The translations under genes and the position numbers were made by a program. The notes below the pieces were generated by a model that had not been told where the DNA came from, did no database searches, and was given only the letters and a program-made list of their open reading frames with translations. From IMG/VR virus record IMGVR_UViG_3300022902_000006: DNA of 64,000 nucleotides; one strand, given 5' to 3'. The DNA is from a virus. Below are positions 2,742 to 64,000 of the stretch, one piece after another. The first letter of the stretch is position 1. The number at the start of each line of letters is the position of its first letter.

Positions 2742-4625
2742 TTATAGTTCCCTTACCCGCGTCACCGGTCGTGCCACGGATCTTTGGTATTTACAACCAG
2801 CGTCATAGATTTTGGCGCACTTGCACCCTTCTTGCTGGGGGCATTTGGCACACACAATCGCAGTAGTTAGCGTCTCTGCTACGTCTGCACGAAACGTCAG
2901 TGCGCGTGCTACGTGCTCATCTACTGTGTCCTTGCCCAAGAGACGGTACACCGTCGTATTGCGCGTCTGCCCAGCACGGTGGTTACGGTCACGCGATTGG
3001 TCATAGGCTCCGAGTTCCCAGGGGAGTGCGTAGTAGATCATGTAGTTTGCAGCGTTGAGCGTAATGCCCACACCCGTCTTGACCTGCGCCAAGTAGACCC
3101 TACATCGGGGGTCATTGTTGAAGCGGTCTACCAAGGTCTTGGCTTTCTTCCCCGTCTTCAACCGTGCGATGGTCCACTTGGATTTATCTTTCTTCCACGA
3201 CTTCGCGATAGCTGCTTCAATGAAGTCCAGCTCTGCCGTGAAGTTAGCCCAGATGATGACCTTGTGCGTAGGCTCCACCAGGATATCACGCAGCTTCGAG
3301 AGCAGCGCATCGAGCTTCGCGTTTGGAGTGTAGAGTTCCACTTCCCGAGGAACGGGTTGGGGGTGTACGACACAGCGATTCGTGTGTGGTCGAATATTTC
3401 CGATGATGCAATCGCGTAGATGAGGGCACTCATCGCACAGCCCCTCGTCCTCCTTCCGTTTCTTGTAGACGAAGCCACCTGTTACCTGCAGCAGCTTCCC
3501 GACGAGTATTGCTGCGTTCGCCACATCCAACAATCCATCTCCGTGCAGAAGCCCCTCTTCCTTGAGCAAATCTGTAAGCAAGTCTTCGGCGTTCTGCTCG
3601 CGCAGCAACGTCCGATACAGTTTTTGCTGAGAGGCACCCAGGGGGACCGCTACGTCAATAACGGTCCTGGGAGGTAGGTCAAGGCAGTCTTCCTTTTTAC
3701 GACGTAAAGCAACCAAGCCGAGTCGCCGCTGCACAACATCCAGATTCTTGAACCCTACAATGATGTGCTTGCTCTTCGGAGCGCGTGTGCAGAACTTGTT
3801 TGTGAAGTGCCAGTAGTTTTCACGTGCAAAGCACGGGGATAAGAGACGCAACTGGGCGTACACGTCACGCGGGTCCCCGAGAGATGGTGTCCCCGATAGG
3901 AGAAGCCTACGCGGAGCTTTCCCTGCGAGGTCCAGCACTGCCTTCGTCTGCCCGCTATTGTGCGTCTGGAGGTAGTGACTCTCATCCGCCACAAGCGCGG
4001 AGTATGGGAGCGTCGCAAGCAGTTCTTTGTACCTGCGCGCCACGCCATACGTCACCACGCACCCTGAAGTCTCCGGGGCTTCAGCGATCTGCTTCCTCTT
4101 CTTCGCTGGGCTGTACCCATCAATGACGGTATACTCCTGCCCGATTCCGTGGATCCCGGCCTCCTCTGGCCACACATCGAGGACAACCTTGGGGCACACA
4201 ATAAGGGGCCAGCACCCTGTGGCCCGCTGCCAGTCGATGACAATCTTGGTTTTACCCAACCCACACGCGTAGAACAGCGCCGCACGCATGTTGTAGATGG
4301 CGTGAAGCAACCCTTCTCTCTGGTGGTCATATGGGTCTGTTTTGTATTCGAAGCCATCGGGAAGTGTGGCTTCTTTGATGCGATCCCCGTATGCGTCCTG
4401 CGTGTGTATCCACTTCTGCGCTGTATCGGATACCTCTACAGGAAGCTGGAGCACCTCAATGTCGTTCAACACAATGCGATGCACAGGGAAGAAGGCGGGG
4501 AAGTACCACCGCAGGTCTGTGCCTGCCATTGCTCCGTACACCTGGCTCCACTTTTCATCCACGCCGGGGATGACAAAGACAGGGGTACCCATGAGCCGGG
4601 TTACTTTGAGTGGGCTAGGTTTCAT
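2742..4625 (-). CDS. SNF2/SWI2-family helicase
   Basis: GLGKT (motif I), DESH (II), LSGTP (III), GVGITLNAANYMIYY (V), QSRDRNHRAGQT (VI). Confidence 0.92.
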   Translation of the reverse strand: MKPSPLKVTRLMGTPVFVIPGVDEKWSQVYGAMAGTDLRWYFPAFFPVHRIVLNDIEVLQLPVEVSDTAQKWIHTQDAYGDRIKEATLPDGFEYKTDPYDHQREGLLHAIYNMRAALFYACGLGKTKIVIDWQRATGCWPLIVCPKVVLDVWPEEAGIHGIGQEYTVIDGYSPAKKRKQIAEAPETSGCVVTYGVARRYKELLATLPYSALVADESHYLQTHNSGQTKAVLDLAGKAPRRLLLSGTPSLGDPRDVYAQLRLLSPCFARENYWHFTNKFCTRAPKSKHIIVGFKNLDVVQRRLGLVALRRKKEDCLDLPPRTVIDVAVPLGASQQKLYRTLLREQNAEDLLTDLLKEEGLLHGDGLLDVANAAILVGKLLQVTGGFVYKKRKEDEGLCDECPHLRDCIIGNIRPHTNRCVVHPQPVPREVELYTPNAKLDALLSKLRDILVEPTHKVIIWANFTAELDFIEAAIAKSWKKDKSKWTIARLKTGKKAKTLVDRFNNDPRCRVYLAQVKTGVGITLNAANYMIYYALPWELGAYDQSRDRNHRAGQTRNTTVYRLLGKDTVDEHVARALTFRADVAETLTTAIVCAKCPQQEGCKCAKIYDAGCKYQRSVARPVTRVREL

Positions 4626-4641
4626 GTTTATCTGCTCGACC

Positions 4642-5052
4642 TTACGGGCTCTCAGTCTTCAGGTCAAGCAAACAACCTTCACACTTGTAAGAGTGAGTCT
4701 CAAAGTTGCGATCCCCACCAAACCTTAGCTTCCATGCATGCTCGCTGGTAAGGAGTCCTTTGAACTGCCGACAGCGAGGGCACAAGACAATATCGGGTCC
4801 CCCCACCGGGAGCCGAATCCACGCATCCTCCATCATGGCGTTGTACGCCAACAAGCATTTACGCGGTAAATACTTCCACAACTCCAAGTCTGGGTCTGAG
4901 CAATACCCTCCGCTGCTCTCCTTGGTGCACCAGACCTTGGCTGCACACGTGTCACAGGCGTACAGCGCAACCGTGGTGTCACACTTGAACTTATCAGGAC
5001 AGAAGGTGCACGCGAGGCGGTTGTAATCCTCGGTTTTCTTTTCATCTGCCAT
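4642..5052 (-). CDS. Cys-rich hypothetical protein (multiple CxxC, putative zinc-binding)
   Basis: CTFC, CDTC, CPRC, CEGC motifs; first gene of the leftward operon. Confidence 0.6.
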   Translation of the reverse strand: MADEKKTEDYNRLACTFCPDKFKCDTTVALYACDTCAAKVWCTKESSGGYCSDPDLELWKYLPRKCLLAYNAMMEDAWIRLPVGGPDIVLCPRCRQFKGLLTSEHAWKLRFGGDRNFETHSYKCEGCLLDLKTESP

Positions 5053-5088
5053 GTTATACTGTACCCCTCCTGGGCTGAGGAAAACTCC

Positions 5089-62634: not shown

Positions 62635-62689
62635 TCATCTACCAGGAAGCAGAACTTGAATGTCAGAGTGATAGACTTCGCACGGTGTG

Positions 62690-63064
62690 TCAAGGCTTGT
62701 TGACCAGGGATTCTTCATCCGTGGTGCGGTCTACAGAGAATACGACCCACTCATGTGGTGCGGTACAAACAAACATCTCCTCCGTCGTCTCAATGAAGGT
62801 CGCCGCTTCCGCAACGTAAGCCTCCTCCAACCACAGCAGCAACCCATCACTCGGCTTTTCATTCACACCCCAAACCAATGTACCAATCCCCGCAGTTGTA
62901 ACGAGTACACGCTCGTGTAAACGCACTTGGCCACTAGCGAAAGCTCTCTTCACAGCGGCAACATCATCAAACACCCACTTGACGGAGTGCTGTATGTTCA
63001 TATCTTGCACCTCATCTATGTAGGTGACCGTGACCTGGGTACCCCTAACCCCCGGCGCAGCCAT
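62690..63064 (-). CDS. hypothetical protein
   Basis: Overlaps the upstream gene end; precedes the terminator. Confidence 0.55.
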   Translation of the reverse strand: MAAPGVRGTQVTVTYIDEVQDMNIQHSVKWVFDDVAAVKRAFASGQVRLHERVLVTTAGIGTLVWGVNEKPSDGLLLWLEEAYVAEAATFIETTEEMFVCTAPHEWVVFSVDRTTDEESLVNKP

Positions 63065-63494
63065 CGTCAGTACCTGGGAAGCTATCGCCGTTTAGATTGA
63101 GCTTGACGTGGTCGAGGGGGCGCGGTATCGCGACCTCAACTATCACTGAGTCATGCACGTGTGCCACCACGTGCGCGTCCATCGCACCCTCCGCCGCTGG
63201 GTCAATGCCCACAATGACCTTGGTGTTCGCAGGAAGTATCTGCACCAATCCATCCTGGGGTGAGTTCCCAGGGGCAAGTACCACCTCGTACAGGCGATCA
63301 CCCACATTGCCCCGTGTACCAAGGGGAAGCGCATCTTCGTACGCCACGGCCCTGAACTCTTCCACCGACGCGTACCTCGCAGCTAAGCCCAGGGCCTCCA
63401 TCTCCGCCATGAAGTTCTTCGCGAACAACGCACCATACGCCAGCGCTTGTGCTTGTGCAGCGTCGTCCGAGGTCCCCATCACCAATCCACCCAT
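63045..63494 (-). CDS. hypothetical protein
   Basis: In the minus-strand operon. Confidence 0.55.
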   Translation of the reverse strand: MGGLVMGTSDDAAQAQALAYGALFAKNFMAEMEALGLAARYASVEEFRAVAYEDALPLGTRGNVGDRLYEVVLAPGNSPQDGLVQILPANTKVIVGIDPAAEGAMDAHVVAHVHDSVIVEVAIPRPLDHVKLNLNGDSFPGTDDGCAGG

Positions 63495-64000
63495 CCAATC
63501 TGAGGGGGTCCGTCGCTCCCTGGCTCGCGCCCATCCATCGTGAAAAAAGCGTACTCCGCGCTGTCGTTGCCCTTCTCATCAAAGCTGGGCCTGGGGCGGA
63601 TGACATCCACGTTGAGTAAATTGATCTCATTCCACAGGTCAACGCGGCAGTTCGCGCCGAGAACGCTGAGGCGCATCAAGTAGAACATCAGAGACGTGGG
63701 CTTCGCCAGGAGCGTATGGCTCTTGCGGATAAACCTCTCCGCGTACGTGAAGGGAGGGTTGCCTGGTACGAAGTCGAAACGCGTGCGCGTATTCCACAGG
63801 AGGAAGTCGGCGTAGACGCGCCGCACCCCTTGTGCGCCCCCAGTCATGGAGTGTCGGAATCGCTCCACCCCGATAGGGCTCTCCTCCATGTTGCGACAGT
63901 AAATCTGGGATATGCGCGCAAAGGGCGCCGGGCCACAACCGGGTTCCAGCACACGCTTTACGCGGTAAAGCTGCTCCCCACGGCGCTCTGCCAGCATTGT
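63479..64000 (-). CDS. amino (N6-adenine-type) DNA methyltransferase, probably 5'-truncated by the window end
   Basis: VLEPGCGPAPF (motif I), FDFVPGNPPF (motif IV), RPSF..D..EYAFF. Confidence 0.75.
   Translation of the reverse strand, partial: TMLAERRGEQLYRVKRVLEPGCGPAPFARISQIYCRNMEESPIGVERFRHSMTGGAQGVRRVYADFLLWNTRTRFDFVPGNPPFTYAERFIRKSHTLLAKPTSLMFYLMRLSVLGANCRVDLWNEINLLNVDVIRPRPSFDEKGNDSAEYAFFTMDGREPGSDGPPQIGWVDW

Follow-up and report, generated by a model that had tools for sequence, protein, structure and literature searches.

An evenly spaced 13-bp palindrome across the genome of a large marine phage, a candidate loading site for the phage's own orphan ParB

On plasmid RK2, 12 OB sites are distributed over 60 kb, where they lie near promoters, far from promoters and inside genes. 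The core of OB, the site of KorB on this IncP-1 plasmid, is TTTAGCGGCTAAA (PMC11790492). A layout of dispersed sites is already known from RK2 and from bacterial Noc. Orphan ParB cytidine triphosphatases (CTPases) are common on phages and mobile elements, and for few of them is the DNA target or the role known (PMC12704722). The present study concerns a 64,000-nucleotide window of the IMG/VR virus record IMGVR_UViG_3300022902_000006, in which a 13-bp palindrome, TTTAC-N3-GTAAA, recurs in many places, and the ParB homolog encoded by the same genome. The window is G000:C1:55056-119055 of the 180,179-bp record, which is rated complete by CheckV; G000 denotes the whole record, other G numbers related genomes and L numbers related contigs. 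No description of a ParB together with such a grid of sites in large phages with their own RNA polymerase (RNAP) was found in the literature searched.

Thirteen exact copies of TTTAC-N3-GTAAA are present in the window, and none was seen in any of 100 dinucleotide-preserving shuffles. Over the whole genome 28 exact copies were counted against 0.06 expected from composition, and the reversed control word has no copy in it. Copies with one mismatch are also in excess (10 in the genome, 1.9 expected from composition); the window holds only two of them, both GTTAC variants, at 11839 and 54911. The mismatches are mostly at the outermost base, so that the core TTAC-N3-GTAA is present in 36 copies genome-wide. 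A preliminary description, made from the letters of the window, had listed the 13 copies and the two variants, and all were recovered to the nucleotide. Its GC estimate by eye, about 62%, is near the real value (57-63% in the measured range, 58% for the whole genome). The observation of the motif is thus fully confirmed and is stronger than could be seen at that time, the sites being evenly spaced over the whole genome and conserved, with variants particular to certain clades.

Neighbouring core sites, 36 in all, are 4,982 bp apart on average (range 1,162-13,490 bp), with a coefficient of variation (CV) of 0.43 for the gaps compared to 0.96 for random placement (P <2e-4). Sites are found on either strand relative to the genes, at 3 nt to more than 1 kb from the next start codon, and some sit in very tight gene junctions (38949, 47167). 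About 15 of the 28 exact sites are inside genes and 12 are fully intergenic, although non-coding DNA is only 16.6% of the genome (P ~1e-3); this split depends on crude gene calls. The location "mostly inside genes" reported before thus holds for the window, but genome-wide the sites are enriched in intergenic DNA.

Synonymous codons were shuffled (n = 200) within the crudely called genes, with the proteins and the codon usage of each gene preserved. Inside genes, 15 exact motifs were observed against a shuffle mean of 0.155 (maximum 2 in 200), and 22 copies of the 11-bp core against a mean of 1.27. This was the comparison on which the preliminary description had staked its claim, and the motif is far above the shuffled counts. 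The intragenic sites are read as L-x-x-K (10 times) or as x-Y-x-V-x (5 times). The third frame would carry an in-frame TAA, and intragenic sites are therefore confined to these two; several frames are used, as had been noted, but just two of the three. Ten intragenic sites use TTA, which makes up 2% of the Leu codons, together with AAA (26% of the Lys codons), in agreement with the remark that a rare TTA codon is often employed. Conservation in relatives, proposed earlier as a check, was seen at site 20669, where the codons TTA, GGT and AAA are invariant in an alignment of nine sequences with flanks only about 50% identical. The deficit in codon shuffles, the use of the rare TTA with AAA and the invariant codons at 20669 establish that selection targets the DNA word itself, as had been supposed.

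The consensus of the site is a-TTTAC-SSS-GTAAA-t. Alignment of the 28 sites, taken in either orientation and with the orientation optimised, revealed no information beyond the 13-mer except for a weak preference for the adjoining a/t. The additional flanking symmetry of 1-2 bp proposed before is real in that several sites pair one base further; it reflects a weak sequence preference and not covariation. The three central bases are 93% G/C in a hand count of the 28 sites. The base following TTTAC, scored in both half-sites, is G in 35 cases, C in 18, T in 2 and A in 1. It is true that 12 of the 13 spacers in the window start with G, largely because of this half-site preference, TTTAC(G>C). In G000 the spacer GGC has eight plus-strand copies, those at 15391 and 17892 among them, and its complement GCC none, irrespective of the local gene strand; in G001 the ratio of GGC to GCC is 4:0 too, yet the gene map is inverted relative to G000. 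This bias may be due to chance.

The parB gene (G000:52535-53482, minus strand) encodes a protein of 315 amino acids and is situated about 1.6 kb before the window. A specific palindrome of 13-16 bp is expected of ParB-type clamp systems, and the 13-bp word is present on the same replicon as parB. The phage protein has the ParB CTPase domain (ParB_N, PF02195, 5e-15), in which the GERRWRA and ENxxR (ENAGR) boxes are kept, and the helix-turn-helix (HTH) domain HTH_ParB (PF17762, 2e-11). It matches Spo0J, Noc and Caulobacter ParB with E values of 1e-19 to 1e-20, and KorB with 2e-7. In a HMMER alignment, a Q and an R of the phage ParB correspond to N178 and R204 of Caulobacter ParB, which are among the conserved DNA contacts of that protein (PMC7383237). 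The HTH region reads KKKITFAHCRELG in the phage ParB and EKKITERHARALIPL in Noc, and the two are very similar. The best structural matches of its AF2 model (predicted local distance difference test, pLDDT, 82) are ParB, Noc and KorB, and Foldseek aligned the model to the complex of the Noc DNA-binding domain (DBD) with the Noc-binding site (NBS), 6y93, with a TMt of 0.81. Towards the C-terminus the model shows a basic, disordered linker and then three helices of good confidence (residues 252-307), for which there was no family match. Among cultured phages no close relative of this ParB was found; the best tblastn matches are 31-38% identical over about half of the protein and are mostly in unannotated records.

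A search for a ParA-type ATPase (PF13614) gave no match in the G000 genome, while the same search was positive in all 14 control genomes. In the absence of a ParA-type ATPase, the phage ParB is an orphan, and ParA-driven partition cannot be its function. The neighbours of parB in its operon had no family match, and no search aimed at a clamp-locking partner of the KorA/TrbA type was made. In G000 parB is the last gene of its operon, and one site is located 44 nt upstream of the leading gene of this operon. A site is found 1.0-1.4 kb from parB in G000, G001, G004 and G017. A gene for a Sigma70_r4 protein (278-289 amino acids; G000:51672-52538, plus strand) lies tail-to-tail with parB with an overlap of 4 nt. 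The adjacency of this sigma-like gene and parB is kept in 9 of 10 complete relatives, those without a grid included.

The phage belongs to a large family of uncultured phages of roughly 160-200 kb, which is defined by a fused RNAP. The open reading frame (ORF) 8763-13472 (1,569 amino acids) encodes a fused beta/beta' two-barrel RNAP with Rpb2_3, Rpb2_6, Rpb1_1 and Rpb1_2 domains, and a separate gene of 597 amino acids, 17149-18942, carries Rpb1_5. The fused RNAP has more than 1,300 metagenomic homologs, many of them on contigs of 160-207 kb, and LAGLIDADG or intein-type insertions (PF14528, PF14890) break up several of them. Salmonella phage Arash and Vibrio phage D69 are distant cultured relatives (RNAP 35% identity); blastn of 8 kb against cultured phages gave no match. 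A scan of IMG/VR with the single RNAP protein retrieved no relatives, and those described here came from an alignment-based scan, which retrieved 327 relatives from IMG/VR. The sequence was found in many seawater metagenome runs of 2018.

In syntenic contigs with 50-64% identical RNAP, the same word is the top palindrome in genomes ranging from 38% to 64% GC. When the sites of relatives were mapped onto the genes of the window, clusters of conserved positions as well as site turnover were observed; subclades have positions in common within the genes for the RNAP, for beta'-C and for a protein of 868 amino acids. Other clades have palindromes of their own, namely TTCAC-N3-GTGAA (9-11 copies per 24 kb), TTTCC-N3-GGAAA, TTACG-N-CGTAA, TWACC-S-GGTWA and TACGCGCGTA. 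The layout of two 5-bp arms around three bases is kept by the first two and abandoned by TACGCGCGTA and TWACC-S-GGTWA. TTCAC-N3-GTGAA is often embedded in gtTTCAC...GTGAAac. TTCAC is the parS half-site and TTTCC the NBS half-site; in the phages they are placed three extra bp apart. The TTCAC clade includes L033, L036 and L037 and the TTTCC clade L053 and L029, with up to one site per 2.2 kb, and the ParBs of both have a common three-residue insertion, (E/G)PG, before the conserved Arg. In G017, the IMG/VR record behind L089 (RNAP 49% identical), the 13-mer is replaced by 38 copies of TACGCGCGTA, which are evenly spaced (CV 0.51); the recognition helix of the G017 ParB has V-K-Q instead of V-S-Q. 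Spacing is significantly even in G000, G001 and G004, and in G017 despite its different word. A frequent word of G021, TTTACGAAA, was rejected as a site as it is a coding repeat in clustered genes. Likewise TTTACGAAATTGGC, with seven copies within 4.3 kb (G021:74003-78289), looks like a coding repeat of clustered genes and not a binding site; we presume these genes to be tail-fibre-like.

With a family-specific profile, a ParB homolog was detected in all 11 complete ingroup genomes. An apparent absence of HTH_ParB from G021, G022 and G026 in the Pfam search was dropped, as the profile found ParB in all three. The state of the DNA-contact residues was therefore compared instead of the presence of the gene. 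The S/K-Q of the recognition helix and the downstream A-R/K are kept in every one of the eight complete genomes that have a dispersed palindrome. In G020, G021 and G025 and in the partial records G018 and G023 these residues are replaced (WVSYH...QAL, RVAEL...DLV, TFKNW...AAM), and in none of the five was an enriched palindrome found. Neither Arash nor D69 has a grid, and with the profile no ParB homolog was detected in either at a cutoff as loose as E 10. Thus, the state of parB tracks the grid. Changes of the half-site coincide with changes in or near the ParB recognition helix.

These results suggest that the 13-bp palindromes are loading sites for a KorB/Noc-like clamp formed by the phage's own orphan ParB, a reading to which we assign a probability of about 0.65. 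The sites have the form expected for the ParB family: they are 13-mers of exact two-fold symmetry between unconserved flanks, in a KorB-like frame and with parS- or Noc-type half-sites in sister clades. By analogy with KorB, Noc and chromosomal ParB, the HTH domains of a ParB dimer would recognise the two half-sites. The site-bound protein may then bind cytidine triphosphate (CTP), close into a clamp and slide onto the adjoining DNA, and sites every 5 kb or so would let clamps cover the whole 180-kb genome. Strict even spacing persists even where the word has changed, which suggests selection for coverage of the entire genome. The role of such clamps could be long-range control of transcription as with KorB, or compaction, marking or shielding of the phage DNA. 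A more elaborate version, in which clamps from the even sites form a mobile platform, is tentative and on the whole doubtful. Such a platform might mark the phage's own DNA and couple it to the RNAP and the sigma-like protein, much like the gp45 sliding clamp of T4, an activator of late transcription; or the clamps might shield the DNA from host silencers or nucleases, as VirB acts against H-NS.

A number of observations weigh against a ParB reader. The presence or absence of the homolog does not discriminate between genomes with and without a grid. In the RNAP phylogeny, which is a quick tree, the complete genomes without a grid, three in number, group in one clade, with Arash and D69 as the outgroup, so that the correlation of ParB with the grid amounts to about two independent events, and shared ancestry could produce the pattern. 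ParB is fast-evolving overall (down to 18-24% identity), and the joint changes of half-site and recognition helix are for this reason not a clean test of covariation. The half-sites are three bp further apart than in canonical parS. In G019, G022, G024 and G026, whose site sets are fuzzier, the spacing is not significantly even. Finally, the enrichment in intergenic DNA and the sites that abut start or stop codons would also fit a signal for gene expression.

That a different, unrecognised dimeric DNA-binding protein of the phage or the host reads the sites, with the ParB link a coincidence, appears unlikely. The symmetry, the even spacing and the selection on DNA demand only some dimeric reader, and besides the small number of evolutionary events behind the ParB correlation, most phage genes are without a family assignment. 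Yet no gene of G000 combined presence in at least five of seven grid genomes with absence from all three that lack a grid, the half-sites of three clades are ParB-family-like, and an intact HTH_ParB protein is encoded. A promoter or other transcription signal for the phage RNAP and its sigma-like factors is improbable, although the family encodes both the fused beta/beta' enzyme and sigma-like proteins. In Arash this polymerase and the sigma-like factors are virion proteins (PMC10585845). The intergenic enrichment, and sites that keep their place before the same gene in several relatives, would be in line with such a signal. Against it, neither a second element nor any hint of orientation is present in the flanks, and a palindrome is in itself directionless; roughly one site in two is deep inside a gene, and the distances to start codons vary widely, as given above. 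Furthermore, no such word is present in G020, G021, G025, Arash or D69, all of which have the RNAP, and the best-conserved "upstream" site lies in an apparent conserved coding ORF. A classical two-box promoter of the sigma-70 type was rejected, as the flanks are not conserved whichever way the sites are turned. Among over-represented intergenic k-mers none stood out clearly as a promoter word of its own. The metatranscriptome run X17 yielded a few contigs of 150-300 nt over 20 kb of the window, which are uninformative on where transcripts start or end.

There is a small chance that the sites are places where DNA is processed in a strand-specific way, by T5-like nicking, site-specific base modification or priming, with the ParB-fold protein itself perhaps as the enzyme. 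Within TTTACG-N-CGTAAA the plus strand has only purines at the centre (G 8, A 2), and in phages a ParB-fold protein can be the partner of a DNA-modifying enzyme (PMC13229309). The ParBs that activate the T-dioxygenase there are without a DNA-binding domain (PMC13229309), however, and the phage ParB has one. The other spacer classes are unbiased (GCG 7, CGC 3; centre base overall G 14, C 11 by hand count), and the 4:0 ratio of G001 goes with an inverted gene map. No Tet/JBP dioxygenase was found, in a weak search that gave no match in any control genome either. The DNA runs are contigs, and nicks are invisible in such data. Least probable of all is the extruded hairpin of the N4 promoter type, which had been put forward in the preliminary description, or an RNA stem-loop. 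The perfect 5-bp inverted repeat with its 3-nt spacer, extended by one pair at several sites, has the required shape; the single-stranded sites fold with just -1.0 to -2.7 kcal/mol, hardly better than shuffles (z-scores -0.3 to -2.2). Pairing between the inner spacer bases is possible in 12 of 28 sites, about as many as composition predicts (hand count and estimate). Owing to this weak folding and to spacer pairing at composition level, the word is read as sequence in duplex DNA and not as a hairpin. In addition, the arms are invariant within the genome instead of covarying, sites of either strand relative to genes occur genome-wide with half of them intragenic, and the fused beta/beta' two-barrel RNAP is not of the N4/T7 type.

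The other proposal of the preliminary description, a binding site for a dimeric organiser or repressor, is supported by the strict symmetric word, the bare flanks, the even spread, the selection on DNA and the conservation. The reader is likely to be of the ParB/KorB/Noc family and not MatP, since no MatP homolog (PF06303) was found in the phage genome and the half-sites resemble ParB-family sites and not matS; the matS/MatP analogy drawn earlier is consequently given up, the word being different as well.

Individual sites of the window occupy diverse positions. Site TTTACGACGTAAA at 3696..3708 is inside the SNF2-type helicase gene 2742-4625 on the minus strand, where it is read A-L-R-R-K with a TTA codon, and the same sequence recurs at 50641..50653 in the 599-amino-acid gene 50139-51938 (frame I-Y-D-V-N). 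TTTACGCGGTAAA recurs in the window. Its copy at 4858..4870 falls in an ORF of 136 amino acids in the divergent region between the helicase operon and a 572-amino-acid gene, and has a syntenic counterpart in eight relatives; the latter gene opens the RNAP gene block, and Arash carries a portal gene at that place. The copies at 24098..24110 and 27869..27881 are in the 241-amino-acid gene 23970-24695 (frame G-L-R-G-K) and close to the start of the 654-amino-acid gene 27771-29735, respectively, and that at 63957..63969 is in a minus-strand ORF running past the window end (frame L-Y-R-V-K). The copy at 33892..33904 is intergenic, just 3' of a GC-rich inverted repeat and T-run, and is bracketed by the direct repeat ACATGACA; in this region, 33852-33925, the inverted repeat and T-run have the look of a terminator.

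Within the RNAP gene block, the one-mismatch site GTTACGACGTAAA (11839..11851) is inside the fused RNAP gene. The exact site TTTACGGCGTAAA occurs twice, at 15391..15403 in the LigD_N-like gene 14975-16093, with a site at the equivalent position in L007, and at 17892..17904 in the beta'-C (Rpb1_5) gene. Site TTTACTGGGTAAA (20669..20681) is in a small ORF about 84 nt before the gene 20765-21364 and is present in eight aligned relatives; the alignment suggests that this ORF may be under coding conservation. Two exact sites are part of gene junctions: TTTACGGGGTAAA (38949..38961) fills the 21-nt spacer between the genes 38469-38945 and 38967-39452, and the TAA of TTTACGGAGTAAA (47167..47179) is the stop codon of the gene 45580-47178. 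At both junctions (38949-38969 and 47167-47185) the G-rich spacer of the palindrome, GGGG or GGAG, is 7-9 nt before the next start codon and may double as a ribosome-binding site. The second one-mismatch site, GTTACGGCGTAAA (54911..54923), is between the ORFs 53877-54869 and 55113-55901, and TTTACGTGGTAAA (58685..58697) is about 123 nt before the gene 58820-59413, in a small ORF or intergenic.

The phage ParB and the palindrome provide a concrete candidate pair of protein and site in a marine phage family that is large and apparently abundant. The variants TTTAC, TTCAC, TTTCC, TACGCGCGTA and TWACC make up a natural specificity series, in which one clade has lost the contact residues and the grid alike. 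Selection for coverage would constrain models of how far clamps slide on viral DNA and how they act there. Should transcription by the phage polymerase be under the control of the clamp, this would add a new layer of phage gene regulation. A platform or shielding role, if true, would give the ParB fold a new function during phage infection, in a widespread family of marine phages of 160-200 kb.

Compared with known systems, the likeness to matS of Escherichia coli is one of architecture. It too is a 13-bp 5-N3-5 palindrome that recurs over a large stretch of DNA and has a dimeric reader, but its sequence is GTGAC-N3-GTCAC and it is confined to the Ter macrodomain of the bacterial chromosome. 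With chromosomal ParABS the phage shares the ParB_N and HTH_ParB domains and the CTP-binding boxes and, by its AF2 model, a helical domain that follows a basic linker at the C-terminus; one phage clade uses the parS half-site, TTCAC. It differs from ParABS in having no ParA, in sites that are unclustered near the origin and in the three extra bp between half-sites. Noc of Bacillus subtilis (PMC7383237, PMC8429893) is likewise an orphan ParB paralogue without ParA whose palindrome is scattered over the replicon and not gathered in one centromere. Unlike the phage sites, NBS are without the 3-bp spacer and avoid the terminus, and even spacing has not been reported for them. Noc also tethers DNA to the membrane by an N-terminal amphipathic helix, and none is apparent, by eye only, in the N-terminus of the phage protein. 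The NBS half-site is that of the TTTCC clade.

KorB differs from the phage ParB in its partners, as it works with the ParA-type IncC and with the clamp-locking KorA or TrbA, and the phage has no ParA. In sequence the phage protein is nearer to chromosomal ParB and Noc than to KorB, by the E values given above. RK2 is a plasmid with its 12 sites on 60 kb, whereas here about 36 sites are evenly spaced on the 180 kb of a large and probably lytic phage with its own RNAP. In the site itself the two systems are much alike: both have a 13-bp palindrome in the same frame, TTTAGC-S-GCTAAA in OB and TTTAC-SSS-GTAAA in the phage. In both, many copies are dispersed, the reader, known for OB and probable for the phage, is a ParB-family CTPase with an HTH, and a site stands before the reader's own operon.

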